From Candidatus Moranbacteria bacterium UBA2282 (lineage in GTDB: Bacteria; Patescibacteriota; Minisyncoccia; Moranbacterales; UBA2206): a DNA stretch of 64,000 bases. The stretch covers positions 6,028-70,027 of the forward strand of contig DDWQ01000003.1 of assembly GCA_002345745.1 (NCBI GenBank). The letters are read 5' to 3'. This document shows positions 1,581 through 56,894 of the stretch, piece by piece. A program made the position numbers and the translations under genes. The notes beneath the pieces were generated by a model. The model was not told the DNA's origin and ran no database searches. It saw only the letters and a list, made by a program, of their open reading frames with translations. The stretch's first letter is position 1; each line of letters begins with the position of its first letter.

Positions 1581-1868
1581 ATGCAAAACATAGATGCCGA
1601 CAACACCAAACTTGTTGTTTACGACTACGGCACTGGGAAAATTATTCTCCACGGTGTAGATTATCCCTGCAATCATCACATGATTGTGGATTTACGGGAT
1701 ATTAAAGAGAGAAGATGTGGTGGATTAAAGGCTACCATTATAATCAAATGTTTTGAATGCAAAACGGAGGAGCAAAGAATTATGAATTTCCACCCAGATC
1801 TTGGGAGGAATATTCACCTCGGAGTAAAAAGAGTTATGAAAGACACTGGGGAAGATGTCATTTCCTAA
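1581..1868 (+). CDS. Small hypothetical protein (95 aa) with four Cys (possible zinc-ribbon-like C..C..CxxC), driven by a consensus promoter
   Basis: ORF with strong SD (gggaggg) 7 nt upstream; Cys at C30, C46, C57, C60. No recognisable family. Confidence 0.45.
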   Translation: MQNIDADNTKLVVYDYGTGKIILHGVDYPCNHHMIVDLRDIKERRCGGLKATIIIKCFECKTEEQRIMNFHPDLGRNIHLGVKRVMKDTGEDVIS

Positions 1869-1942
1869 CTCTTACGGGGATTCAACGGTCACGGAGAGCG
1901 CCTGGCAATCTTGCCGAAGCTCTCCACCTCAACTTAGATTTT

Positions 1943-1958
1943 ATTCGCCGCGGCGAAT
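1943..1958. repeat. Perfect 16-bp GC-rich palindrome attcgccgcggcgaat
   Basis: Exact reverse-complement symmetry. Lies just downstream of the small ORF. Confidence 0.5.
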
Positions 1959-1988
1959 GAAACTTGGGAGAGAGGTGAAAAATATAAT

Positions 1989-2035
1989 CCAAATTTTCTC
2001 TTGAATCTGCTGGGTGGAATTGTGTTGGTTTTTTT
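1989..2035. repeat. Direct repeat copy 2 (ctcttgaatctgctgggtggaaTtgtgttggttttttt)
   Basis: Matches 1309-1362. Confidence 0.6.
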
Positions 2036-2110
2036 GATGGAAGTAATAGAAATTCTCACTTCTATTGCAAATTATATAAACTACTCGTTATGTTCAGCAT
2101 TACTAGCAGT

Positions 2111-2572
2111 TCACGCTTCTAGAGTTATCCTCCTTTGATTCTCATCCAACCATTCAAACTTAATTCTGACCGCCTCCTTCGGCAGGATTTTTTTAATGCG
2201 TTCTGACCATTCTACTATAATAATATTTTTTGGATCTGCAATTATCTCTTCCCAACCAAGATTCAGCAAATCCTGAGCCTCAATACGATATGCGTCTATA
2301 TGGTAAACTTTTTTGATTTTATTTGAAATTTGAAATTTGTCTGCCGTGGCGGATGAAATTTTTGTCTCGTATTCCTTCATTATCAAAAAAGTTGGGCTTG
2401 TGTATGGGCCTTTTGCACCCAAACCTTGCAGTAATCCTTGGGTGAACGTAGTTTTGCCGGCACCCAATTCACCATCCAAGCACAAAACTTCCCCACCGCG
2501 AAGTTCCAGCGCTAACAATTCGCCCAGCTTTTGTGTTTCTTTATGATTATTCGTGATAAACTCTTTATTCAT
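2111..2572 (-). CDS. tsaE: tRNA threonylcarbamoyladenosine biosynthesis ATPase TsaE (YjeE)
   Basis: P-loop GELGAGKTTFTQGLLQGLG and ~150 aa size are typical of TsaE. Confidence 0.85.
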   Translation of the reverse strand: MNKEFITNNHKETQKLGELLALELRGGEVLCLDGELGAGKTTFTQGLLQGLGAKGPYTSPTFLIMKEYETKISSATADKFQISNKIKKVYHIDAYRIEAQDLLNLGWEEIIADPKNIIIVEWSERIKKILPKEAVRIKFEWLDENQRRITLEA

Positions 2573-2721
2573 AAGTTTTATGAGGATTATTCAAAGATAG
2601 GACTTATGCCATTACAACGCATAATCATCAAAAAGTCAAGGATTCAAGCCAAATATTTGACATACCTCCATTGCCTTGCTATCATATAAAACTAACTTAA
2701 CTAGTAGAAATTTTCATATAT

Positions 2722-3852
2722 ATGAGCCTCGAACCGCAAGAACAATTTAAGAATTTTGTAGAAAAATCTAAGGATGTTTTGATTTTGATTCCGGAAAATC
2801 CCAGTGGTGATGCAGTTGGCAGTGCTTGGGCACTCTATTTCTTTTTGAAGAAAAAAGAGATCAATGCCACAATCGCCTTTTCTAATCATCTTTCAGAAAA
2901 ATATGATTTTCTGCCCAAACCAGAAGGAATTCTGACAGAAATTTCCGGTGCTCGTGATTTTGTTCTATCTTTCAACACCGCCTACAACAAAATAACCAAT
3001 GTTCGCACTGAAAAACTTGATGATAAATTAAACATCTATCTAACACCAGAAAAAGGAGCTTTAAATCCACGAGACTTTTCTTTTATTCTGGCTAAATTTA
3101 AATATGATTTAATGATTGTTATCGACAGTCCTGATCTTGAAAGACTTGGAGCTATCTATGAAAAAAATCCGGATCTCTTTTTTGAAGTTCCAATTATTAA
3201 TATTGACCATCGTAGCAATAATGATAATTTTGGACAAATAAATTTAGTAGACATTACCGCTTCATCTTGCAGTGAAATTTTGAGCTCAGTGCTAGATCAT
3301 ATAAACTATAACTTGGTGGACAAAGATATTGCCGATTGTCTTTTAACTGGCATCATCAGTGCAACCGAAAGTTTTCAGAAGAAAAATACTACACCTAAAG
3401 CTCTTTTGGCAGCAGCCACTCTTATGGACAAAGGCGCTGACCAACAAACGATTATCCGCTGGCTCTACAAGACACAACCTTTGCATATTTTGAAATTATG
3501 GGGTCGTGCTATGGCTAATCTGAATTGGGACGAACATTCTAAGCTTATTTGGACAAATCTAAGTGTGGAAGATTTCGTACAAAGTCGTGCCAGTCAAGCT
3601 GATGTGTTGTTGATTCTCGAAAAATTGCAGGAAAACTATAGTGAAGGCAAGCTATTTATGGCTCTCTATAATGATACTCCGCTTTCAACCGTGGCTTTAA
3701 TAAAATCAGCTGACATTGCTCTATTGAAAAAAATTCAGCCACTTTTCAATAGCACTCTTAAACGAGATACGCTTGAAATTAAATCTGAAATTAAAAATCT
3801 CTTTGAAGCTGGCGAGCTAATTTCTAAAAAAATAAAAGAGGTCAACAATTAA
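2722..3852 (+). CDS. DHH-family phosphoesterase-like protein (NrnA-like; motifs partly degenerate)
   Basis: NIDHRSNNDNFG resembles the DHH motif region. Overall layout resembles NrnA/DHH-DHHA1 proteins, but the GGGH motif is not evident. Confidence 0.45.
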   Translation: MSLEPQEQFKNFVEKSKDVLILIPENPSGDAVGSAWALYFFLKKKEINATIAFSNHLSEKYDFLPKPEGILTEISGARDFVLSFNTAYNKITNVRTEKLDDKLNIYLTPEKGALNPRDFSFILAKFKYDLMIVIDSPDLERLGAIYEKNPDLFFEVPIINIDHRSNNDNFGQINLVDITASSCSEILSSVLDHINYNLVDKDIADCLLTGIISATESFQKKNTTPKALLAAATLMDKGADQQTIIRWLYKTQPLHILKLWGRAMANLNWDEHSKLIWTNLSVEDFVQSRASQADVLLILEKLQENYSEGKLFMALYNDTPLSTVALIKSADIALLKKIQPLFNSTLKRDTLEIKSEIKNLFEAGELISKKIKEVNN

Positions 3853-4718: not shown

Positions 4719-5828
4719 ATGCTAAAAATAGTATTTGAGGCGCTTTTAGCGGTAGTTGTTATGCTTTCGTTAAGCTCGATGGCTTTCAGCTATACGGATG
4801 AAGAGCAGTATGTTTATGATAATCTCTATTTGCAATTGCCCTGGGAGCCAGCAAGGTATATCAAGCTAACGCAGGAGAATAGAGATACGCCAACCCATTC
4901 CGTTGGTGGTGTTGATGAATACGCATTGGATTTTGGTTTTATAGAAAGCACTCCCGTCACCGCAGCTGAATCAGGTGTTGTATATGTGTATAGGGTTGAC
5001 AATACCAATGCGTCTGCCTATGGTAATCATATAAAAATTGATCACGGACATTTTTATACTTTGTATGCTCATCTGTCTACAATAGAAGACGGCATCGATG
5101 GCTCTGAGGTTAAAAAGGGTGATGTAATTGGATTGTCTGGACACACTGGAGTAGGTTCTGGTTCTCATTTACACTTCGGTCTTTATTACGGATATGCCTA
5201 TAACGACGGGTACAGCTATTCTGTGCAGAGCAAGATTGTGTCTGCCAATGAAGGCACTGGTCCGTATCAAACCCTTCAAAGTTTGCAATTTAATAATGGG
5301 CAGTTCTATTTATCAGGCAATTTTAAATCTGGTCAGGAGGGGATAATAGTTTGTGAAAGTAATGGATGCTATGTGGACACAAGCTCTGGAGTTGGAGGAA
5401 ATGGAAGTCTCCCCGACTTCATCACCAAAAAAATCTGGTTCTCTAACTCATCAGGCAATCCAAAAACCGTGTTCAAACCAGGCGAAGCTATGCAAATTCA
5501 CATTGAGGTGAAAAATGTGGGAGCCGATACTCCCTCGGGCATTGATGTTGACTATTTTCGTTCAAATGGGCTTTACAAAGATTCAGATCCTAAAAATATT
5601 GGAACTGATTTTATTCACAAAGATGATCTCGAAGGAGGCGAGACGCACAATGAGTTAAAAAACACAACCGCACCAATAACTAAGGGCAGATACAATTTTG
5701 TGGCTTGTCCGGATCCTGATCATAATGTTGCCGAAGAACATGAAAACAATAACTGTTCCGACGAAGCTGTTTTCAAAGTTGATGATCTCAAATGGCTTAA
5801 TCCAATTATTAATTATATTTTAGATTGA
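4719..5828 (+). CDS. M23 family metallopeptidase (LytM domain) with a C-terminal CARDB-like beta domain; secreted
   Basis: HIKIDHG...YAHLS...GLSGHTGVGSGSHLHFGL is the M23 HxxxD/HxH signature. N-terminal signal peptide; SD agggagg upstream. Confidence 0.85.
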   Translation: MLKIVFEALLAVVVMLSLSSMAFSYTDEEQYVYDNLYLQLPWEPARYIKLTQENRDTPTHSVGGVDEYALDFGFIESTPVTAAESGVVYVYRVDNTNASAYGNHIKIDHGHFYTLYAHLSTIEDGIDGSEVKKGDVIGLSGHTGVGSGSHLHFGLYYGYAYNDGYSYSVQSKIVSANEGTGPYQTLQSLQFNNGQFYLSGNFKSGQEGIIVCESNGCYVDTSSGVGGNGSLPDFITKKIWFSNSSGNPKTVFKPGEAMQIHIEVKNVGADTPSGIDVDYFRSNGLYKDSDPKNIGTDFIHKDDLEGGETHNELKNTTAPITKGRYNFVACPDPDHNVAEEHENNNCSDEAVFKVDDLKWLNPIINYILD

Positions 5829-5838
5829 AGGGGGAGAT

Positions 5839-6198
5839 ATGAAAAAAGCATTGGTGATTTTTTCTATAATGATTTTTGCTGTTTTTTGTCAGACAATTAC
5901 AGCTGAGGCTACTGAATATGTAGTGTGGGATACAGTACTCTCAATATATGGGCAAAGTGAGCAAGAAAGTTCAGCACATCTGATTAGATCTTCTAAGGGA
6001 ATATATAATAATGGCATGCACCCATGGTGCGGTGATCGTGCCTATATTTTACTAACTGATAAGGCACTATATGCTACAGCCTTAGCATCTTCAATGGCTG
6101 AAAAGCATGTGAATTTCATCTATGAAGATGCGGCACCGTCAAAAACAGCTAGAGATCACATTACATTTGGCTGTAAGGTTATAAGTATTTTCTGGTAA
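5839..6198 (+). CDS. Small secreted hypothetical protein
   Basis: Signal peptide MKKALVIFSIMIFAVFCQTITAEA. Confidence 0.45.
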   Translation: MKKALVIFSIMIFAVFCQTITAEATEYVVWDTVLSIYGQSEQESSAHLIRSSKGIYNNGMHPWCGDRAYILLTDKALYATALASSMAEKHVNFIYEDAAPSKTARDHITFGCKVISIFW

Positions 6199-6372
6199 AA
6201 ACAATTTCTACGTGAAACATGAAAAAAGTTTACATTGGTTTAGTATTGATTTATGATTTCAAATTGGAATGAAAAAAATTATGTTCAATAGACAGTGGCT
6301 AAATTAGTGAAAATGCAGTAAAATAAATTTATAAAATAGATTTCTCTAATAGACCTATCCCAAAAAAATATT

Positions 6373-9300
6373 ATGATAAAAATACTTTCAAAAAAATCAT
6401 CCACCCATCAAGATAATGAAACAAAAAAAGATCTGGCTACAGAAAAAGTTCTGTCCAAATTGCGTCACCAATCTGAAGAGGAACAAACATCTGCTTTTGC
6501 GGCTATGATTGGAATAAATTATATTGACACTAATCTCATTCCGATTGATTCAGACAGCATTAAGTTAATACCCGAAGAAGATTCCAGAAAATTCAATCTA
6601 GCTGCAATTGCCAAAACTGGAAAAAAAGTTACTCTCATTGCTACTAATCCAACTACTCCCGAGACAATCGCCTATTTAGGAAATCTTCGCGAAACAAATG
6701 GTTGGGAATTAAATCTTTTTATCGTTTCCGAATACAATCTAGGAAGAGTTTGGGAGCGTTACAAAAAAATTGTATTTACCGACATTCTATCTCAACTTAG
6801 TGTAAACCTGACAGGAGAAGATTTAAAAAAATTTGATGAATACCTAAAAGACCTGACCACACTCAAACAAAGAATTAATGAATTGCCAACTACCCAAGTT
6901 CTTAATGTAATTATGGGAGGAGCTTACAAGTTAGGTGCTAGTGACATTCATATTGAACCACAAGAAAAAGATTTTCGTCTACGCTACCGCATTGATGGCA
7001 TCCTGCATGATGTAGCTTTTCTGCCTCTCAATATCTTCAAGTCCATTACTAATCGTGTAAAAATGATGTCTGATATGAAATTAAACTTACGCGATATTGC
7101 TCAAGATGGAACTTTTGAAGTAAATATTAGTGAAAAGAAAATTTCAATTCGTGCTTCTATTATTCCTGGCAACTATGGCGAGAGCATTGTAATGCGTCTG
7201 CTTGATCCAGAGTCTATTCAAGTCTCAGTTGAAAATTTAGGCTTGCGTGGACTTGCCTATGAAATAGTTCAAAAACAAATTACAGCTCCCAGTGGAATGG
7301 TGCTGACAACTGGACCAACTGGTTCTGGAAAAACAACTACGCTCTATGCTATTGTGCATAAGCTCAATAATCCTGAAACAAAAATAATCACTATTGAAGA
7401 CCCAATTGAATATGAATTGGTCGGCATTTCTCAAACGCAAGTTGAAAATTCTCGTGGTTACACTTTTGCTTCTGGCTTGCGTTCTATTGTCCGTCAAGAT
7501 CCAGATGTAATTCTAGTTGGTGAAATTCGTGATGAAGAAACAGTTGATATCGCTATTAATTCAGCCCTGACAGGACATCTTGTTCTTTCCACTATTCACA
7601 CCAACAGTGCTATTGCGACAGTTTCCAGAATGATTGAAATGGGAGTCAAACCAACTTTAATCGCTCCTGCGTCCAACGCATTTATCGGTCAACGACTTGT
7701 GCGTAAATTATGTGAATGCAAAGAAGAATATATACCCGCCAGAGAATCGTTGGAATCTTTAAAGAAAATTTTATCTATTATTTCTCCTAAAGCTAAATTA
7801 GATATACCCAAAGAGATTACAAAACTCTATCGACCCAAGGGTTGTCCAAAATGCAATAACCTTGGATATAAGGGTCGCATTGGAATTTTTGAGGTTTTTA
7901 TTATTAATGAAGAAATTGAAAAACTTATTGTTAACTTTGGTTCTGAAACAGAAATCACAATGGCGGCTTTGGAAAGTGGACTGATTACAATGTTGCAAGA
8001 TGGTATTTTGAAAGCACTAGAAGGCATTACATCTATTGAAGAGGTGCGACGCACAACAGGTGAAGGAGATTTTCTGCAAGATATTTATGAAAAATTAATG
8101 TCTTCCACACTTGGACGCGGAATACTAATTGATCCAGAAAATTATACTAAAGCGCTTACGAATATTAAAAATTTCCAACAATTGCAAGAAATAGTTTCCA
8201 GTGCAACAACCAAAGATATTAATAAGATTGTTTTTGCGGCGGCTTCAATCTTGCATACTGGTGACATTCATATTGAACCAGGACCAGCTGATGTAAAAAT
8301 TAGATTCCGTATCGACGGCATTCTGCAAACCATCCTTACTTTTCCTCTCAGTGAATATCCGAATATTTTAGGAGAAATAAAGATTCTCTCGGGAGTTAAG
8401 ACTGAAGTTCGCGAAGGAGTTATTGATAGTCGTTTCACTATTAAATTTGATGAGGAAATTCCTGACATCCAAGAAAAATCAGTAGATGTGCGTGTTTCAA
8501 TTATATTAGGCGGTTATGGCGAAACTGTTGTAATGCGACTTCTGAGTAAAGCCTCCCAAGAATTAGATATTAACAAACTTGGAATTAATGAACAAAATAA
8601 GAAAAAAATTCTAACTGAAATTTCCAAACCCAACGGAGTTTTTCTCAACACCGGTCCAACTGGTTCTGGCAAGACCACAACACTCTATTCTATTATTAAT
8701 ATTCTTAATAAACCTGAAGTAAAAATCATTACAGTTGAAGATCCGATTGAATATCAAATTGAAGGTATATTGCAAACGCCTACCAATGATAAGGAGGGAT
8801 ATACTTTTTCCACAGCTTTGCGAGCACTTTTGCGTCAAAATCCTGATATTATGATGATTGGTGAAATTCGTGATGATGAAACTGCACAAATTGCCGTGCA
8901 AGCTGCTTTGACTGGACATGTAGTGCTTTCCACTATTCATACTAATGACGCTGTTGGAGCCGTACAGCGTATGCTTAATATGGGTGTTTCGCCGTCAGAT
9001 ATCGCTTCCGCCGTTAATGCTTTTATGGCACAACGGCTCGTGCGAAAATTATGTGATTGCAAAGAAGAAATTTCTCCGACACTCGAAGAAAAAGAAAAAA
9101 TCGAAATAGTATTAAAAACCATTTCCTCTAAGGCTGGCGTAGAAGTTCCAGCTATTGGCAAAATTTATAAACCCAAAGGCTGTGAGAAATGCAATAATCT
9201 TGGTTATAAAGGCCGAACTACTATTAGCGAAATTTTTGTACTTGACCGCACAATCAAAGAATTAATTAATCATAGTGCCAGCACTACTGAGCTTTCTGAC

Positions 9301-14002: not shown

Positions 14003-14590
14003 ATGTTAATCTTTATGTCTAATGTCACAAAAAGAATATTAAAACTAACTTCCTCCCCTAAAACCGTCTTTACAGTGGCTGATTTAGCTATTTTTTGGGA
14101 AACAGAAAATAAAAATGTTCTACGCGTGACTATTTCTAGAGCCAAAAGTGCTGGCTATTTACAATCTATACAAAGAGGCCTGTATGCTCTAACTAACGCC
14201 AATATTGACCTGTTTGAATTGGCTGGCAAGCTCAAAAAACATTCCTACATAAGTTTTGAGACTGTCCTAACTCAATCCGGGGTAATCTTTCAATGGCATA
14301 ATGAAATCATTTCAGCTAGTGACAATGGGTTTGAAACAGAAAATAGTTATGGAAAGTTTACCTATCGAAAATTGCCAGAAAGCGCTCTTTTAGACAATAT
14401 TGGAATCATCAATACTGAAAATTATTTTATTGCTTCAGCTGAAAGAGCACTGTGTGATAAGATATACAAAGATGGTTTAGTTTATTTTGACGATTTGAGC
14501 GGAGTAGATGGAAAGCTCGCAATGAAAATTTCCAAAATATATCATAACAAACGTCTAGAGAAAGACATTAAAAAATTATTTTCATTATGA
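14003..14590 (+). CDS. abiEi: AbiEi-family antitoxin / transcriptional regulator (type IV TA, abortive infection AbiE)
   Basis: ~195-aa protein immediately upstream of, and overlapping by 4 nt (ATGA) with, an AbiEii-family nucleotidyltransferase gene. The operon layout is classical AbiE. The N-terminal wHTH assignment is inferred. Confidence 0.55.
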   Translation: MLIFMSNVTKRILKLTSSPKTVFTVADLAIFWETENKNVLRVTISRAKSAGYLQSIQRGLYALTNANIDLFELAGKLKKHSYISFETVLTQSGVIFQWHNEIISASDNGFETENSYGKFTYRKLPESALLDNIGIINTENYFIASAERALCDKIYKDGLVYFDDLSGVDGKLAMKISKIYHNKRLEKDIKKLFSL

Positions 14591-15309
14591 TTATCAACAA
14601 ACAACAACATAAAAAAATGATGCTAGATATTTTATCAGACATATCTTCTGATCCAATTTTAGCTATCAATCTTGGCTTCAAAGGCGGAACTTGTGTCTAT
14701 TTTTTATACAGCTTAGACCGTTTTTCTGTTGACTTGGATTTTGACTTATTAGATATTGAAAAGAAGGAAGAAGCTCTCAACAGACTAGATCTCCTCTTGG
14801 TAAAATATGGGAAGGTGAGCACAGATGGAACTATGCGTCGAAAAGTTAAATATTCAGAGGAATCTGCCACTCTCAAGGTTGACGTTTCTGATCGGATTGA
14901 GATAAATGCTCTGAATACATACGAAGTAAAAGATATTGTATCTGGAGTGCCACTCAAAATACTATCCAAAAAAGATATTTTCGCTCACAAGTTAGTCGCT
15001 ATATCTAATCGCTATAACAATAAAACAACCAACAAAGTCATTACCAATCGGGATCTATATGATGTTAATTTCTTTTTTGACAATAAGTGGGCTTTCAATG
15101 AAAAAATTATTGAGTTGCGCGTAGGAAAGAAAGCTGTCGAATATTTAGCTGACTTGAAAAAACTTATTGAAGATAAAGTTGATGCCAAGAAAATTCTAGA
15201 TGGCATTGGAGCATTGGTTGACGACAAAAAAAGACTTTGGGTTCGCAGAAATCTGAAACAAGAGGTGCTAAAAAAACTATCCCTGCAAATAGAATCAATG
15301 CGAGAATAG
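14587..15309 (+). CDS. abiEii: AbiEii/AbiGii-family nucleotidyltransferase toxin (DUF1814)
   Basis: LGFKGGTCVYFLYSLDRFSVDLDFDL matches the AbiEii GG[TS]..-R.S.D[IL]DF nucleotidyltransferase motifs. Confidence 0.75.
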   Translation: MIINKQQHKKMMLDILSDISSDPILAINLGFKGGTCVYFLYSLDRFSVDLDFDLLDIEKKEEALNRLDLLLVKYGKVSTDGTMRRKVKYSEESATLKVDVSDRIEINALNTYEVKDIVSGVPLKILSKKDIFAHKLVAISNRYNNKTTNKVITNRDLYDVNFFFDNKWAFNEKIIELRVGKKAVEYLADLKKLIEDKVDAKKILDGIGALVDDKKRLWVRRNLKQEVLKKLSLQIESMRE

Positions 15310-15392
15310 AAATTTAAATTTATTTATAAATACTTTTCTTGCTCCTAAAATTACTTTAGAATAATTATTTCTAAAAAATTGTTATTATTGCC

Positions 15393-15429
15393 CATAAAAA
15401 AGAGCAGGTGGTAAATTCACACCTGCTCT
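15393..15429 (-). terminator. Rho-independent terminator (agagcaggtg/cacctgctct 10-bp stem) oriented for the minus-strand gene at 15467-15805
   Basis: Perfect 10-bp stem at 15401-15410/15420-15429 with a 9-nt loop. The T-run follows on the minus strand (A6 at 15395-15400 on plus). Confidence 0.6.
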
Positions 15430-15466
15430 GAAGTGAGGTTAATAAATTTGATTGTTACAATCTCAT

Positions 15467-15805
15467 TTAATTTTGTTTTTTCTTGTCCAAACAATCATCA
15501 CAGATGAAGCTACAATGCGATTTAATACACCATACCATAATTGCCAATGCAATCTGCGTCATCGGTGACTCATTTATATCTACTGGTTTTGAATCAGCAT
15601 CCGCAAGGCTTTCTATATCAATGCTCCCGATATATCCAATGCCATAAACAATTTTCTTGCAGTTATCACACTCATTTTTTACCCATGGGTAAGTTTCATT
15701 TTTTTGAACATACACAATGAAAACTTTCTCTCCGCTTTCATTAAAAATATCAAACATCTTATCATTAACTTTTTCAGCTCTTAAGTTTATTTTTGTTTCT
15801 GCCAT
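15467..15805 (-). CDS. Hypothetical Cys-containing protein (start at internal Met with strong SD)
   Basis: AAGGAG sits 6 nt upstream of the ATG encoding MAETKINLRAEKV. The longer ORF start at 15865 lacks an SD. Confidence 0.45.
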   Translation of the reverse strand: MAETKINLRAEKVNDKMFDIFNESGEKVFIVYVQKNETYPWVKNECDNCKKIVYGIGYIGSIDIESLADADSKPVDINESPMTQIALAIMVWCIKSHCSFICDDCLDKKKQN

Positions 15806-16090
15806 CGCATCTCCTTTTTCCCGATATTTGTTCATTGGCCTCGGATAATGGCAACTATATTGCATTAGAAAAGAACCAGCGTCTAATTTTAATCTATTTT
15901 AGCTTTCTTAATCTTATTATACACGCTAGTCTAACAAAATAAAAATGTCAATAAATTATATAAGATGCGCACCTAGAAGTAAATTTTTCTCCCATACTCC
16001 CACCGCAAAATAAGGCATAACAATCGGCTGAATATTACTCATAGAAAGATCTGGGACGCGCATTTTCTCACTCCAATCAACTCGCCACTA

Positions 16091-16128
16091 CCATACTTAA
16101 ATTATGGCAATTGCAATATATTAAGTAT
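16091..16128. repeat. ~38-bp palindromic element, copy A (atacTtaa-attatggcaattgcaatatat-ttaAgtat)
   Basis: 8-bp perfect inverted arms around a 21-bp core containing the palindrome gcaattgc. Repeated at 16812-16849. Confidence 0.6.
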
Positions 16129-16176
16129 GTTGTTAAAATGGAGATACTCTTTTTTTAATTATTTCATTATTCACAA

Positions 16177-16782
16177 ATGACGCCAGAAAATAGTTTGCAA
16201 AAAATTGTAGATGACTTTCGTTATTCCGACAGTGTGCCAGCCACCGCTGCTAAATTTATTCTGGCAGCATTGGCCGCTGGACCGGTTATTGTTTCTGCTG
16301 CAGCTTTTCCTGGTTTATTTTCAGAATTAAATCGTACCAGTAAGAAAAATAAATATTCGCGAGACCAATTTAAACGAGCTTATCAAAACTTAAAATATAA
16401 AAAGCTCATCCAAATTGTACAGGAGGATAATGAAAAATTTGAAGTACAGCTGACTAATAGTGGCATTGCGCGAGTTAAAACCTTTTATTTCAAAACACTA
16501 AAAATACAAAAACCAAAAAAATGGGACAAGAAATGGCGAATTTTTATTTTTGACATCCCCGCCAAACCAAAAGCATATCATCAAGCACGCGAAGCGTTAC
16601 GCAAGAAAATTAAAGATCTGGGATTTTATCAAATGCAAAAAAGTGTCTGGGTCTATCCCTATGAATGCGAGGATGAAATTCTTTTTGTGGCTGAACTATT
16701 TTATGTGCAAAAATATATTGAAATCCTCACCGTTGAAAAGCTGCTTCATGAAGAAAAAATTAAAAAAATTTTCAATTTATAA
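16177..16782 (+). CDS. Hypothetical regulator-like protein: winged-helix-like middle region plus C-terminal Cas2-like/PaaX_C-like domain
   Basis: C-terminus KKWRIFIFDIPAKPKAYHQAREALRKKIKDLGFYQMQKSVWVYPYE resembles the Cas2/PaaX C-terminal fold pattern (IF.FDIP...R..LR..L...G...Q.SV...P). Flanked by the palindromic repeats. The Cas2/PaaX fold call is a motif resemblance only, not a database or structure result. Confidence 0.45.
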   Translation: MTPENSLQKIVDDFRYSDSVPATAAKFILAALAAGPVIVSAAAFPGLFSELNRTSKKNKYSRDQFKRAYQNLKYKKLIQIVQEDNEKFEVQLTNSGIARVKTFYFKTLKIQKPKKWDKKWRIFIFDIPAKPKAYHQAREALRKKIKDLGFYQMQKSVWVYPYECEDEILFVAELFYVQKYIEILTVEKLLHEEKIKKIFNL

Positions 16783-16811
16783 ACTATAGCTAGTTTTTAT
16801 ACTTATTTTTT

Positions 16812-16849
16812 ATTTCCTACATACTCAAATTATGGCAATTGCAATATAT
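16812..16849. repeat. ~38-bp palindromic element, copy B (atacTCaa-attatggcaattgcaatatat-ttGAgtat)
   Basis: Same core as copy A. The arm changes t>c and a>g are compensatory and preserve the inverted repeat. Confidence 0.6.
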
Positions 16850-16884
16850 TGAGTACTCTGTGCGTATTTATAATTTTTAATTTA

Positions 16885-16920
16885 AAAAAGCCAGAACCGT
16901 AATAGGCTTTGGCTTTTTTT
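16885..16920. terminator. Bidirectional terminator hairpin (aaaaaagcca...tggcttttttt)
   Basis: aagcca/tggctt stem with an A-run on the left and a T-run on the right, between the convergent genes at 16177-16782 (+) and 17130-17378 (-). Confidence 0.5.
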
Positions 16921-17129
16921 AAATACTACACTTTCAAGAAAGTTAATACCTCCTTTTTAACAGAACTAGTTTAAAATCCGCATCTATACATCCACCCTCC
17001 TTTAGCCAAAAACGAGCACCATTGAAAGCTGTAACGGGATACAATCATCCACCCCTGCCGATCCTGTTATCAAAAAACTTTTTCTCTTCTTCGGTTTCGG
17101 GTTCGAAATGAAGATCCAAACAACCCTCT

Positions 17130-17378
17130 TTAAGGACACATGTCGTTTTCATCTTGAGCTACCTCCCTTCTGTGTTTTTTATATTCAACGACTACGCAAG
17201 AATCACGCTGTGGCATCATACCCCCACCCATAACCAATCCTTGATAATGCACTTGATTTTCAATCCACCAATCTACAATTTCCACATCACCCAATTCATC
17301 TTCGATTGCATTGCTCACATTCCTATCATCTGGCGCAAAATTTCGAATAACAATGCGATGTTGATGTATTTTTTTCAT
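17130..17378 (-). CDS. Small hypothetical protein (82 aa)
   Basis: ORF only; no recognisable motif. Confidence 0.3.
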   Translation of the reverse strand: MKKIHQHRIVIRNFAPDDRNVSNAIEDELGDVEIVDWWIENQVHYQGLVMGGGMMPQRDSCVVVEYKKHRREVAQDENDMCP

Positions 17379-17561
17379 AGCAATCTCCTTTTTTCATTGT
17401 TAAAGTTCTGGGTTAATATTAAGCGATCACGGTAATAGCTTAATGACAAAGTATATGCTAAAGAAAAATTATTGTCCTAATTTAGGTTATTTAATTGTAA
17501 TTGTTGACAATCTGTGGCTTATTTGATAGATTATATTTAGCGACCTTTTTGGCGTCATTTT

Positions 17562-18296
17562 ATGATAATTGAAGATTTAATGACAATTGGCTTGGACAAA
17601 AAAGAAGCACAACTTTATTTGTGCCTACTTGAACTTGGAGAAACTAATATAGCCCGTATCGTTAAAAAATCCGGTATCAAGCGTACTACCTGCTATGATG
17701 TGATTGAATCTCTCAAGGAAAAAGGTCTTATTTCCATCATCGTAAAAAAAGCTAAAATTTTCTATTTCGCTGAAGACCCCCGAAAATTGGAGCGCCAATT
17801 GGATGAAAAAAAACATCTTCTCTCCCACATCCTTCCTCAACTCCTGTCCGTCGCCAACCTGATTGATAAAAAGCCAACTATCCGCTATTTCGAAGGCGTT
17901 GAGGGCATCAAAGATGTTTATCGCGATACGCTGAATCATCCTAAACAAGAACTTTTAGCCTGGATTTCCGACGACGCGGTGGATTATTTTGACATCGATT
18001 GGCTGTGGAATTTTTATGTCACCAAAAGAGTAGAGAAAAAAATTTGGTCCAGGTCAATTGCGCCGGATGTTCCCTATCTGAAAAACGTAAAGACCTTTGA
18101 TCAAGAGCATCTGCGCCAAAGCAGACTAATCTCACCGAAAGAATTTCCTTTTCAGGTAGAAATAAACTTATATAGCAATGACAAGATAGGTATCATGTCT
18201 TTCCGCGAACAGTTTGGCTTGGTTATCGAAAGTAAAAAAATTTACACCACCCTCAAAAGCATCTTTGAGGCGCATTGGAAATCACTCAATAGTTAA
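17562..18296 (+). CDS. TrmB-family transcriptional regulator
   Basis: N-terminal HTH LGLDKKEAQLYLCLLELGETNIARIVKKSGIKRTTCYDVIESLKEKGLI is typical of TrmB. A TTGACA promoter-like hexamer lies at ~17505. Confidence 0.75.
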   Translation: MIIEDLMTIGLDKKEAQLYLCLLELGETNIARIVKKSGIKRTTCYDVIESLKEKGLISIIVKKAKIFYFAEDPRKLERQLDEKKHLLSHILPQLLSVANLIDKKPTIRYFEGVEGIKDVYRDTLNHPKQELLAWISDDAVDYFDIDWLWNFYVTKRVEKKIWSRSIAPDVPYLKNVKTFDQEHLRQSRLISPKEFPFQVEINLYSNDKIGIMSFREQFGLVIESKKIYTTLKSIFEAHWKSLNS

Positions 18297-18468
18297 AAAT
18301 TAAAAAATCGATCTTCGAGCTGCTCTGAGACAATCTGCCGGAAGTGAAAACAAAAGTTGAACTTACCGTCTCAAAATGCTAGACTTATACTATACTAATA
18401 TACTTAACACCTATCGTAGACATGAAACGCTAATAATGACGCGCGATTCACGCTCTACGCTCAACGAT

Positions 18469-19188
18469 ATGTCAGGACATAGCAAATGGTCAACCATTAA
18501 GCGCAAGAAAGGGATTAATGATACGAAACGAGGGCAGGTTTTTACCAAACATGCCACGATGATTACAATCACTGCTCGTGATGGTGGTGGCAATCCAGAA
18601 ATGAATTTTCAATTACGCTTGGCGATTGACCGTGCGCGTTTGGACAATATGCCCAAGGAAGGTATTGACCGAGCTATCAAGAAAGGCACTGGCGAACTCA
18701 AGGATGGTGCTGAAATCGTGGAAATTATCTATGAAGGCGTGGGACCGGGTGGCGTGATGATGCTAATCAAAACTGCTACGGACAATCGGAATCGCACCGT
18801 TGGTGAGGTTAAAAGCATTTTTACTAAGGCTGGATACAAACTCGGCGAAATGGGTAGTGCGATGTGGAATTTCAAAAAAGTCGGCAGTCTCAGTGTTGCC
18901 ACTCCGTCCGGTATGACGCAAGATGAACTTGAAGAAAAGGCTATTGATGCTGGTGCAGAAGATATGATTTATGTCGACAATATCCTAGCGGTTTATACTG
19001 CACCAGAAGAATTGAAAAGCGTCCAAGAAAGTCTAGAGAAAGCTGGTCTGAAAATTGAAGATGCCGGTTTTGACTATCTCCCCTTGCAAAAAGCAATTCT
19101 TTCCGCGGATGAGCAAGTTGCATATGATAACCTCTTGGAAACATTGGACGATCAAGCTGATGTGCAGGAAATTTTTGACAATTTATAA
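18469..19188 (+). CDS. yebC: YebC/PmpR-family DNA-binding transcriptional regulator
   Basis: MSGHSKWSTIKRKKGINDTKRGQVFTK is the hallmark YebC N-terminus. Start taken at that Met, not the upstream one in the ORF track. Confidence 0.9.
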   Translation: MSGHSKWSTIKRKKGINDTKRGQVFTKHATMITITARDGGGNPEMNFQLRLAIDRARLDNMPKEGIDRAIKKGTGELKDGAEIVEIIYEGVGPGGVMMLIKTATDNRNRTVGEVKSIFTKAGYKLGEMGSAMWNFKKVGSLSVATPSGMTQDELEEKAIDAGAEDMIYVDNILAVYTAPEELKSVQESLEKAGLKIEDAGFDYLPLQKAILSADEQVAYDNLLETLDDQADVQEIFDNL

Positions 19189-19196
19189 TTTTATAT

Positions 19197-19694
19197 ATGG
19201 TAAAAGTTCTTGGCATTGATCCCGGCACAGCCACGGTTGGTTGGGCTATAATTGAGGAAAAAAAAGGAATTTTGCGTCCCGTGGCTTTCGGACACATTGC
19301 AACTAGCAAGGAAAATTCGGAAGAAAATCGTTTAATGGAGATTTCAGCTGACATTTCTGCAATTATTAAGAAGCATCAACCAAGTGAAGCAGCTGTGGAA
19401 CAACTTTTCTTTTTCAAAAATAAAAAGACCATTATTCAAGTTGGCCAAGCTCGCGGGGCAATTATCTTGACACTAGAGCAAAAAGGTGTTAAGATATCCA
19501 GTTACACACCATTGCAAGTCAAGCAGTCTGTAACCGGTTATGGCAAAGCTGAAAAAAAACAAGTGCAACTGATGGTAAAAAACATTCTGAAACTCAAGGC
19601 CATTCCAAAACCAGATGACACTGCCGATGCGCTAGCTTTGGCCATTTGTCACATTAACAGTCGTAAAATTGCAGATTTAGTTTCTAATTTATAA
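19197..19694 (+). CDS. ruvC: Holliday junction resolvase RuvC
   Basis: VLGIDPGTATVGWAII RNase H-like N-terminus, ~165 aa, in the yebC-ruvC neighbourhood. Confidence 0.9.
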   Translation: MVKVLGIDPGTATVGWAIIEEKKGILRPVAFGHIATSKENSEENRLMEISADISAIIKKHQPSEAAVEQLFFFKNKKTIIQVGQARGAIILTLEQKGVKISSYTPLQVKQSVTGYGKAEKKQVQLMVKNILKLKAIPKPDDTADALALAICHINSRKIADLVSNL

Positions 19695-56066: not shown

Positions 56067-56894
56067 TTAACTTAGTATAAGCTCGCTAACCTTTTTCCAA
56101 TCAACAATAGTCAGTTCTTGTGCACGTACGTTTTCATGAAGTGAAAGCGTTTTTAATTTTTCGCAAATATCTTTTTTGTCTAATTGTAGGCTATTTCCGA
56201 GGTTATTAGGAAGAGTTTTTCTTTTAGCGGAAAAGCCAGCTTTGACAACGCGAAAGAATTTTTTGTCAGTTATTTTATTGAATTTACGAATAGGCGTTAT
56301 TTTTATAATAGCGCTGTCCACTTTTGGTATGGGGAAAAAAGAATCCTTGCTAACTTCAAACAAAATTTTTACTTCGGCATAATATTGAATTGCAACAGAA
56401 AGAAGGCTCATTTGACCTGCAGTAGCTACAATTCTTTTTGCTACTTCTTTTTGCACCATCAAGATAATTTCTTTTGGTTGAATGACTTGTTCAAGAAATA
56501 GTCGGATGATGGGAGAAGTTATGTAATATGGAATGTTAGCGACTAGTTTGTAATTTAGAATCGGTGCCGAAATGGGGACACTGGGTGTCCCTTTGGACAC
56601 CCAGTGTCCAAGTAACTCGGGTAAATTTATGTTTAAAATATCAGCGTGAACAATTTCCACGTTAGCTGTGTTTTTGAATTTTTCATTAAGCACGGGAATC
56701 AATCTATCATCAAGTTCAATCGCGATGACTTTTTTGGTATGTTTAGCCAATTGTTCTGTGAGCACGCCTTCTCCGGGACCAATCTCAATCACAAAATCTT
56801 CTGAATTCAATTCAGCTACTGTAATAATTTTTTGCAAAACTTGCTCATCGCGGAGAAAATTTTGACCCAATGATTTTTTTGGCTTATTTTCCAT
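56067..56894 (-). CDS. rsmA: 16S rRNA (adenine1518/1519-N6)-dimethyltransferase
   Basis: KKSLGQNFLRDEQVLQKII and IEIGPGEGVLTEQL SAM-binding motifs. Confidence 0.9.
   Translation of the reverse strand: MENKPKKSLGQNFLRDEQVLQKIITVAELNSEDFVIEIGPGEGVLTEQLAKHTKKVIAIELDDRLIPVLNEKFKNTANVEIVHADILNINLPELLGHWVSKGTPSVPISAPILNYKLVANIPYYITSPIIRLFLEQVIQPKEIILMVQKEVAKRIVATAGQMSLLSVAIQYYAEVKILFEVSKDSFFPIPKVDSAIIKITPIRKFNKITDKKFFRVVKAGFSAKRKTLPNNLGNSLQLDKKDICEKLKTLSLHENVRAQELTIVDWKKVSELILS

Follow-up and report, generated by a model that had tools for sequence, protein, structure and literature searches.

In a stretch of 64,000 nucleotides of Candidatus Moranbacteria bacterium UBA2282 (contig DDWQ01000003.1; hereafter the window), a gene for a Cas2-fold protein of 201 amino acids (aa; 16177-16782, plus strand) lies between two copies of a 38-bp palindrome. 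The initial annotation treated this bracketed gene as an isolated curiosity; our comparative analysis shows instead that it is the signature of a large, multi-paralog gene family of Patescibacteria (the candidate phyla radiation, CPR). We propose with moderate confidence that the open reading frame (ORF) is a minimal PaaX-type autoregulator with two cognate operators placed around its own gene, and the comparison of related loci indicates that the gene is gained and lost as a unit. Patescibacteria have tiny genomes in which regulation is almost uncharacterised, and the family, of more than 440 members, had no described function. PaaX-type repressors with a long inverted-repeat operator are known in kind; the layout reported here appears to be undescribed, and three of its features are unusual: the gene is bracketed by what would be its own sites, the dyad symmetry is kept by compensatory change, and the unit is cleanly gained and lost. 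In the literature collection that was searched, no paper was found to connect proteins resembling PaaX or Cas2 with Patescibacteria or with palindromes of this sort.

The bracketed gene and its family

Copy A, the upstream copy (U), is a 38-bp imperfect palindrome at 16092-16129 (CATACTTAAATTATGGCAATTGCAATATATTAAGTATG, centre GCAATTGC), and copy B, the downstream copy (D), is an imperfect palindrome located at 16820-16857 (CATACTCAAATTATGGCAATTGCAATATATTGAGTACT), 38 nt past the stop codon and in direct orientation relative to A; neither is assigned to a strand. Both members of the pair noticed initially proved to be real and the only two in 64 kb, with coordinates that had to be corrected, B having been placed 8 bp too low (16812-16849) and A at 16091-16128. 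The copies are identical at 34/36 positions with a spacing of 728 bp, and the two differences are a T>C change at arm position 7 and an A>G change at its pairing partner. The compensatory pair described at the outset is thus present, and the outer stem is paired in both copies, over 9 bp in copy A (CATACTTAA/TTAAGTATG) and 7 bp in copy B (TACTCAA/TTGAGTA). Over the whole palindrome, 16/19 positions are paired in copy A (counted by hand) and approximately 15/19 in copy B. When further copies were looked for with the shared 21-mer ATTATGGCAATTGCAATATAT, allowing up to 3 mismatches, exactly two occurrences, A and B, were found in the window and no match in 100 shuffles. A scan of the window for palindromes (half-length of 18, at least 15 pairs) returned only copy A and one unrelated GC-rich palindrome, and none in 5 shuffles.

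More than 440 homologs with 55-70% identity were found, with several paralogs per genome, and their database labels are inconsistent (PaaX, VapD, Cas2 or hypothetical). A set of 70 loci, consisting of 69 loci from species-representative genomes and the window, was analysed with a uniform palindrome detector. All source names given for the homologs, and all organism titles of the 69 fetched loci except for some generic or evidently mis-assigned labels of metagenome-assembled genomes (MAGs), indicate Patescibacteria (Moranbacteria or Parcubacteria), and many of the sampled genomes hold 2-4 paralogs. The comparison of the flanks (300 nt on either side of each gene) showed a pair of 36-40-bp palindromes around almost every gene: in Moranbacteria/Parcubacteria a palindrome is found upstream in 56/70 loci, downstream in 56/70 and on both sides in 49/70, and the layout extends to homologs of Nomurabacteria and Paceibacteria with 37-43% identity. 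Typical distances are 45-110 nt from the centre of U to the start codon and 30-100 nt from the stop codon to the centre of D, with a median U-D distance of 770 bp.

In the palindrome consensus of the family (nTTAGTCAAaTTTnTGCATATGCAnAAAtTTGACTAAn), the centre positions G16, C17, A18, T21, G22 and C23 are conserved at more than 90% and C7/G32 at approximately 70%, the conserved centre being GCATATGC or GCAATTGC. The arms differ between paralogs: in the genomes CAIOVI01 and CAYTIK01, the four paralogs all have arms of a sequence of their own, and U and D match within the locus. The mean divergence of the proteins is 0.33 in the Cas2 domain and 0.53-0.58 in the N-terminal regions. The distance between arms correlates best with that of the winged-helix region (rho 0.34) and the distance between centres with that of the Cas2 domain (rho 0.35), both correlations being weak and confounded by phylogeny.

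The protein comprises an acidic N-terminal motif, a hydrophobic segment of 25 residues, a helix with a beta-hairpin (winged-helix-like, approximately residues 58-105) and a Cas2-like ferredoxin-fold domain (114-193). Residues 114-193 match the Pfam family PF20803 PaaX_M, the "PaaX protein central Cas2-like domain" (E 8.6e-20; score of 71 bits, cut-off 24), which is matched by 80/80 aligned family members. The structure predicted by AlphaFold2 from the 80-sequence alignment is confidently a Cas2-like ferredoxin fold, in the order beta-alpha-beta-beta-alpha-beta at residues 120-186 (pLDDT approximately 90), and its best Foldseek matches in the PDB are type II-A Cas2 proteins (5xvn_F, E 9.8e-4; 20-27% identity), E. 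coli PaaX (8a39) being found at rank 46. The C-terminal domain initially read as Cas2/PaaX-C-like does therefore have a Cas2/PaaX-like fold, but the Pfam match is to the central PaaX_M and not to PaaX_C. The Cas2 hallmark residues are invariant in the family alignment, with an FDIP motif that includes D126 and a QxSVW motif (Q154, S156). The score reached 19.4 bits for TIGR02277 (PaaX equivalog; cut-off 264.55) and 19.9 bits for TIGR01573 (Cas2; cut-off 24.5), PF09827 matches only 12/80 members, and the protein ends 8 residues past the PaaX_M match, without the C-terminal effector (phenylacetyl-CoA) domain PF08223 of PaaX. With scores under both curated cut-offs, the protein is therefore a two-domain relative of PaaX without effector domain, and not an orthologue of PaaX or Cas2. 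A search of PDB sequences with the family profile gave no significant match, and no second copy of the gene was found in the window by tblastn.

The N-terminal half is poorly modelled (pLDDT 40-65), with a helix at 62-74 then a beta-hairpin at 78-92 resembling a recognition helix and its wing. The winged helix-turn-helix (wHTH) that had been assigned to this half is only weakly indicated: the N-terminal winged-helix domain of PaaX in Pfam, PF07848, is matched by 0/80 members at E<=1, and other wHTH families gave weak matches only (GMT-wHTH in 17/80 members, best E 0.004; DUF6293_C in 9/80). Upstream of it, residues 24-48 or so form a conserved, transmembrane-like stretch rich in Ala, Gly and Leu (pLDDT 40-46), preceded by a conserved acidic F-x-Y/D-S-D-S motif; its Kyte-Doolittle hydropathy (19-residue window) is 2.04 at residues 27-45, for a family median of 2.13, and exceeds the usual transmembrane threshold.

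Symmetry of the palindromes and overlap with the predicted promoter

Maintained dyad symmetry had been deduced initially from the single T>C/A>G pair. A lone compensatory pair would be weak proof, and it is the comparison of sequences across the family that makes the inference statistically sound. Among 105 distinct palindromes, 88% of the cells are Watson-Crick or wobble paired, compared with 57.8% when the palindromes are shuffled; the covariation score of 0.698 was reached by 0/500 shuffles, for which it is 0.171, and pairing falls to 31-45% when the partner is slid by 1-3 columns. When U and D were compared within 48 loci, 35 compensatory double changes were counted, the pair of the window being one of them, for 5.9 expected if the same number of differences were placed at random (maximum of 15 in 2000 simulations). 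Cells of the G:U type are rare (39/1995, with 239 unpaired), and the sense strand shows no preference for G:T mismatches above A:C ones (U, 20 against 37; D, 34 against 27), which indicates that the constraint acts on double-stranded DNA. Where the internal asymmetry is readable, 11 loci, the window among them, have U and D in direct orientation and 7 have them inverted, and this mixture argues against a strand-specific mechanism. Pairing of U with D in one transcript, leading to circularisation of the mRNA, was considered and is contradicted by the 35 changes within palindromes; only the 7 loci with inverted copies fit it.

A sigma-70 promoter is predicted at 16111-16139 on the plus strand (TTGCAA, a 17-nt spacer and a TG-extended TAAAAT), and its -35 hexamer begins right at the centre of copy A, the proposed operator. 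When offsets of 19-30 nt from the palindrome centre were scanned, a -10-like element was found 3' of U, on the gene side, in 25/56 loci, often as TGnTAnAAT and mostly at 22-23 nt from the centre, and in only 8-10 of 54-56 at the control positions (far side of U, both sides of D). This enrichment on the gene side indicates that U covers the -35 element and the spacer of the gene's own promoter.

Of the 48 genes next to D, 26 are co-directional and 22 convergent. Since D is present whatever the orientation of the next gene, it belongs to the enclosed gene and not to a downstream promoter. A role of D as operator of the next gene's promoter was rejected on the 22/48 convergent neighbours together with the lack of -10 enrichment. 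In the window, an A-tract, GC hairpin and T-tract resembling a bidirectional intrinsic terminator (AAAAAAGCCAGAACCGTAATAGGCTTTGGCTTTTTTT, 16884-16920, with no strand assigned; -9.2 kcal/mol as DNA, z -3.4) is located just 3' of copy B. A canonical terminator follows D in 6/53 loci, the window included, and stands between the stop codon and D in none. The palindrome itself was rejected as an intrinsic terminator, being AT-rich and without a T-tract after it (mean of 3.0-3.1 T in the next 8 nt).

Proposed autoregulation and the alternative explanations

Three roles had been suggested for the palindrome. That of an operator for a dimeric regulator fits best, a recombination or cruciform site keeps some standing, and an RNA hairpin is disfavoured by the lack of a G:U excess and by the position of U, 5' of the -10 box. 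In the mechanism that we propose, both 38-bp palindromes would be cognate binding sites of the 201-aa protein, whose variable N-terminal winged-helix-like region would read the palindrome arms and whose highly conserved Cas2-fold domain would make the dimer or a higher oligomer. The protein bound to copy A, over the -35 element and the spacer, would block RNA polymerase and result in negative autoregulation, as for PaaX at Px. Copy B, which follows the stop codon and precedes the terminator, would serve this protein as a second operator (an auxiliary operator or a roadblock), which could either cooperate with A by looping out the gene of approximately 730 bp or block transcription running in or out. 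We infer in this way the binding of the protein to the palindromes, the sign of the regulation and the role of copy B. Because the two sites are 36-bp direct repeats, recombination between them could also delete the gene, leaving a single palindrome.

The operator bound by E. coli PaaX is a 39-bp inverted repeat, TGATTC-N27-GAATCA, and the protein represses its own Px promoter through steric exclusion of RNA polymerase (PMC9493321). The match in operator size and geometry, with copy A suitably placed, supports the same mechanism here. The paralog-specific arms, the matching arms of U and D within a locus, the variable N-terminus and the conserved Cas2 domain would all fit cognate pairs of protein and site. 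Extra copies of the palindrome that seem to lie at other promoters count for the operator as well. The paralog P0013, on a contig of approximately 131 kb from the same metagenome sample as the window, has three palindromes of its own type, one upstream of the paralog, one downstream, and one placed before a lytic-transglycosylase gene and followed by TGcTAAGAT. At L072-74, an orphan palindrome of the window type lies between an O-antigen-ligase-like gene and a gene identified by eye as a GT4-type glycosyltransferase, upstream of the latter in L072.

Compared with PaaX (a repressor of E. coli and Pseudomonas that responds to phenylacetyl-CoA; PDB 8A39, 3L09), the family has in common the central Cas2-like PF20803 domain after a region that binds DNA in PaaX and would do so here, and a very long inverted repeat, which is an operator of 39 bp in PaaX and a proposed one of 38 bp here. 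It differs by its length (201 aa instead of approximately 316), by the absence of the PaaX_C effector domain, by an N-terminus unmatched by the Pfam PaaX model, by sites on both sides of the gene, by several paralogs per genome, by a conserved 8-bp centre added to the arm half-sites and by identified members that are all from Patescibacteria; moreover, no paa catabolic genes were found in the window neighbourhood or in any inspected locus. With Cas2 of CRISPR adaptation, the protein shares the ferredoxin fold, the FDI...QxSVW hallmarks and the association with partly palindromic repeats of 36-38 bp, but there is no cas1, array or spacer, the protein has an N-terminal extension of 110 residues, and the repeats are only two and enclose their own gene. 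As stated initially, no cas-like ORF was found among the neighbours, nor was any CRISPR array detected in the window by Tandem Repeats Finder.

Pairs of operators acting through looping are well known, such as OL/OR of lambda CI around cI-rex and the auxiliary operators of lac, gal and deo. They resemble the present layout in that one repressor has operators on either side of a gene or several hundred bp apart; they differ in that the second site here lies beyond the stop codon of the regulator gene itself in nearly all members, and looping is only proposed. We know of no general design that has been described with a second operator at this place.

Several observations weigh against the autoregulator. 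Reading by half-sites of a homodimer does not by itself predict compensatory changes at the positions that differ between U and D; with 35 of them observed for about 6 expected, the self-complementarity of each site must be kept up by more than direct readout. Selection could favour a symmetric or cruciform-prone site, or the arms could be kept matched by the template-switch mutation known as "quasipalindrome correction", which is established from E. coli mutagenesis. Concerning the protein, a transmembrane-like N-terminal segment, as predicted from its sequence, would be unexpected in a soluble repressor, the model points only weakly to a winged helix, and the invariance of all the Cas2 hallmark residues exceeds what a role in dimerisation needs. 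Concerning the downstream site, no promoter signature is enriched on either side of D, and with D between convergent genes in 22/48 loci its role is a conjecture. Finally, the solitary palindromes and the homology limited to the cassette (the gene with its two palindromes) that are presented below fit a recombination module at least as well.

If the autoregulator is retained, each paralog is now paired with a candidate site, and the differing arms together with the covarying positions supply natural variants of specificity. The architecture would be unusual, a regulator gene being bracketed by its proposed own operators, with brackets that make the gene deletable and a single palindrome left as a scar.

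The main rival explanation, which we judge unlikely, is a module of recombination or mobility. The palindrome-gene-palindrome unit would be a relocatable cassette, whose Cas2-fold protein recognises its own ends and directs or catalyses the reaction; the substrates would be the 15-bp arms around the conserved 8-bp core, extruded as hairpins or as a cruciform, and insertion or excision at a single chromosomal palindrome would give the bracketed and the solo states. Stems that covary around a conserved hairpin tip and the invariant hallmarks of the Cas2 catalytic site are in agreement with this scheme, as are the arrays of L008, L036 and L070, where palindromes also separate other genes. The hybrid state found in L090 and in the metagenomic loci L075 and L076, with the left arm of copy A (T) and the right arm of copy B (G), points in the same direction.

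Further data for such a module come from the distribution of the cassette. The accessory nature of the locus, noticed initially, was borne out by comparison: the order LTD/PKD protein, cassette, TrmB-like gene, YebC and RuvC is common to the window and L003 only, and at the YebC-RuvC locus of eight other relatives (YebC 69-80% identical) the gene is missing, tblastn being negative there; these loci hold instead nothing, AbiE pairs, AAA_14 ATPases or small ORFs. Two of the eight, L090 and L091, retain a single palindrome just after the LTD/PKD gene. That of L090 is decayed and of the window arm type (CATACTTAA...TGAGTACT), with a right flank that can be aligned to the stretch following copy B, and that of L091 has the arm type of L003. 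Homology limited to the cassette was observed twice. In one MAG (JAQTLF01), L012 and L014 have in common a stretch of 784 bp (97% identity) that starts 13 nt ahead of U and ends 3 nt beyond D, with unrelated flanks; the L014 copy (in the region 1808-3659) is a pseudogene with a premature stop (CAA>TAA), immediately preceded by a 372-aa reverse-transcriptase-like ORF (YADD motif) and followed by dnaE. In L017 and L021, the identity of 83% is confined to the stretch between the palindromes, and the flanking genes are unrelated. For both the indel polymorphism and the cassette-limited homology, the simplest explanation is recombination, either between the 36-bp direct repeats or at dispersed copies of the palindrome; a dedicated recombination module would also leave these traces.

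Other data argue against the module. Ordinary deletion between 36-bp direct repeats explains the solo palindromes equally, and the homology of L012 and L014 passes beyond the palindrome, so that the crossover was not in the core. No known recombinase or transposase motif was found by Pfam, PADLOC or inspection of the alignment; for HUH or catalytic-tyrosine (Y1) transposases, neither Pfam nor PADLOC gave a match and no H-x-H is present among the invariant columns. Several paralogs are in conserved synteny across genomes (Nfo...gene...Metallophos-UDG, UvrA-gene-UvrC, RecG-gene and YchF-gene), and identical proteins keep an identical context throughout, on the 24 contigs read for P0041 and the 11 for P0012. 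Active mobility in populations is disfavoured, as identical proteins were never found in differing contexts. The mixed orientation of U and D also speaks against the module, and the strand-specific tolerance of G:T that single-strand hairpin substrates predict is not seen.

Two groups of known elements are close to such a module. Site-bounded gene modules include the pdif modules of Acinetobacter, the attC cassettes of integrons and the lox-type 13-8-13 sites; they are similar by inverted-arm sites with a central core, by the existence of bracketed and single-site states and by a structure conserved over sequence, and differ in that there is here no linked tyrosine recombinase, the core is palindromic and the arms are specific to the enclosed gene. 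REPtrons (a RAYT gene with its cognate REP palindromes) are similar by the bracketing of a single gene, the palindrome class that tends to be proper to each paralog and the mostly vertical inheritance, whereas the present family has no HUH/tyrosine motif, few copies per gene in the sequences scanned (two in the 64 kb of the window) instead of hundreds, an overlap with the promoter and no single-strand (G:T) signature. If the recombination reading were true, a Cas2-fold protein would recognise repeats in a recombination module of a new kind. The more specific proposal of a self-contained relocatable module, whose protein recognises and perhaps nicks or recombines the hairpin or cruciform repeats bounding its own gene, as a new class of minimal element or a domesticated recombination system in Patescibacteria, we hold to be improbable; it would tie a Cas2-like protein to cognate palindromic repeats of 36-38 bp outside CRISPR, with a possible bearing on the origin of the association between Cas2 and CRISPR repeats.

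Equally improbable in our opinion is a structure-dependent site without mobility, where the palindromes would form cruciforms under negative supercoiling and be bound by the protein in their four-way or hairpin form, so that expression of its own gene or of neighbouring repair genes would depend on DNA topology or damage. Strong compensatory evolution without wobble bias is exactly what a cruciform, with both strands pairing, predicts, and the conserved centre (GC-ATAT-GC or GC-AATT-GC), in which G:C pairs clamp an AT core, suits a hairpin tip. In addition, 24/70 loci, including the window (18376-19694), adjoin DNA-repair genes (Nfo/UDG, UvrA/UvrC, RecG or YebC-RuvC) in several independent groups of synteny, and these recurring neighbours may also hint at what the paralogs regulate. 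Against such a site, the window copies form weak hairpins as single-stranded DNA (-6.6 and -5.5 kcal/mol, with 3-4 internal mismatches), several loci, such as L028-30, have asymmetric inner arms in both copies, and template-switch mutation yields the same pattern without selection.

Still more doubtful is a role in RNA, the palindromes being hairpins that bracket the mRNA as 5' and 3' stabilisers, RNase III sites or terminators without U-tract. Copy B would be transcribed if the terminator at 16884-16920 is used, and the palindrome is the only conserved 3' structure given the scarcity of canonical terminators around D described above. In the region 15300-17700, no Rfam family reached its gathering score, and weak sub-threshold matches of two-hairpin shape were obtained at 16818-16922. 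The rarity of G:U-type pairs, the absence of a preference for G:T over A:C, the position of U outside the gene's own transcript and the lack of a T-tract after the palindromes all speak against this role. Lastly, a generic REP-like dispersed repeat or chance duplicate without link to the gene is scarcely credible, for despite the orphan copies found away from family genes in other genomes (L072-L075), only two copies are present in the window and none of the window type in the 12.6-kb P0013 paralog locus, the palindrome is linked to the gene in 56/70 loci, the arms of paralogs differ within two genomes, 0/100 shuffles gave any match, and the five loci without a nearby family gene that a metagenome scan gave with the 23-mer core of the window have one copy each; dispersal is thereby effectively refuted for the window.

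Neighbouring genes and other palindromes

In the window, the cassette has as neighbours the LTD/PKD protein, AbiE, TrmB-like, YebC and RuvC genes. The toxin-antitoxin pair AbiE recognised beside the locus in the initial annotation was confirmed, AbiEi being located at 14003-14590 and AbiEii at 14587-15309, and a 132-aa ORF (15467-15865, minus strand) lies between the pair and copy A. These three genes are missing from the orthologous locus L003, where the LTD/PKD gene directly precedes the upstream palindrome, which indicates a separate insertion of the AbiE pair; as AbiE pairs recur at the YebC locus of L088, L094 and L095, this place is an insertion hotspot.

On the other side, a TrmB-like winged-helix regulator gene (17562-18296, plus strand; PF01978, E 2.7e-15) is a recurrent neighbour and an uncertain member of the system, a TrmB-like ORF being present within 3 kb of the cassette in 23/70 loci, the window included. 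One such gene lies on either side in L077, and a palindrome follows the TrmB-like gene in L008 and L036. The approximately 640 bp that separate the terminator from the TrmB-like gene (16921-17561) contain only short unsupported ORFs, of 82 aa on the minus strand and 93 aa on the plus strand, one of which was searched against Pfam and gave no match; the counterpart in L003 carries a 165-aa minus-strand ORF without detectable homolog in the window.

Third or fourth copies of the palindrome are found between neighbouring genes in L008, L022, L024, L026, L032, L036 and L044. The orphan palindrome of L075, from another metagenome, stands after a TrmB-Fic gene pair and is followed by the terminator hairpin of the window: AAAAAAGCCAGAACCGTAATAGGCTTTGGCTTTTTTT is nearly identical at L075 2620-2655, after the Fic gene, and is directly 3' of the palindrome in both cases. 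The solo palindrome of L090 is likewise trailed by an analogous terminator hairpin.

Other palindromes were encountered during the analysis. The GC-rich palindrome returned by the scan of the window is a nested one, GGGACACTGGGTGTCCCTTTGGACACCCAGTGTCCA, at 56575-56610, inside a minus-strand ORF (56067-56894) in a surrounding sequence of 35% GC, and comparable GC-rich palindromes occur in or beside ORFs in L008, L009 (three copies) and L039. In L058, a different palindrome family, AATTGTTCCACGTGGAACAATT, is present three times in approximately 600 bp (5800-6430), where it overlaps a minus-strand ORF of 344 aa, 2.2-2.8 kb downstream of the family gene of that locus.

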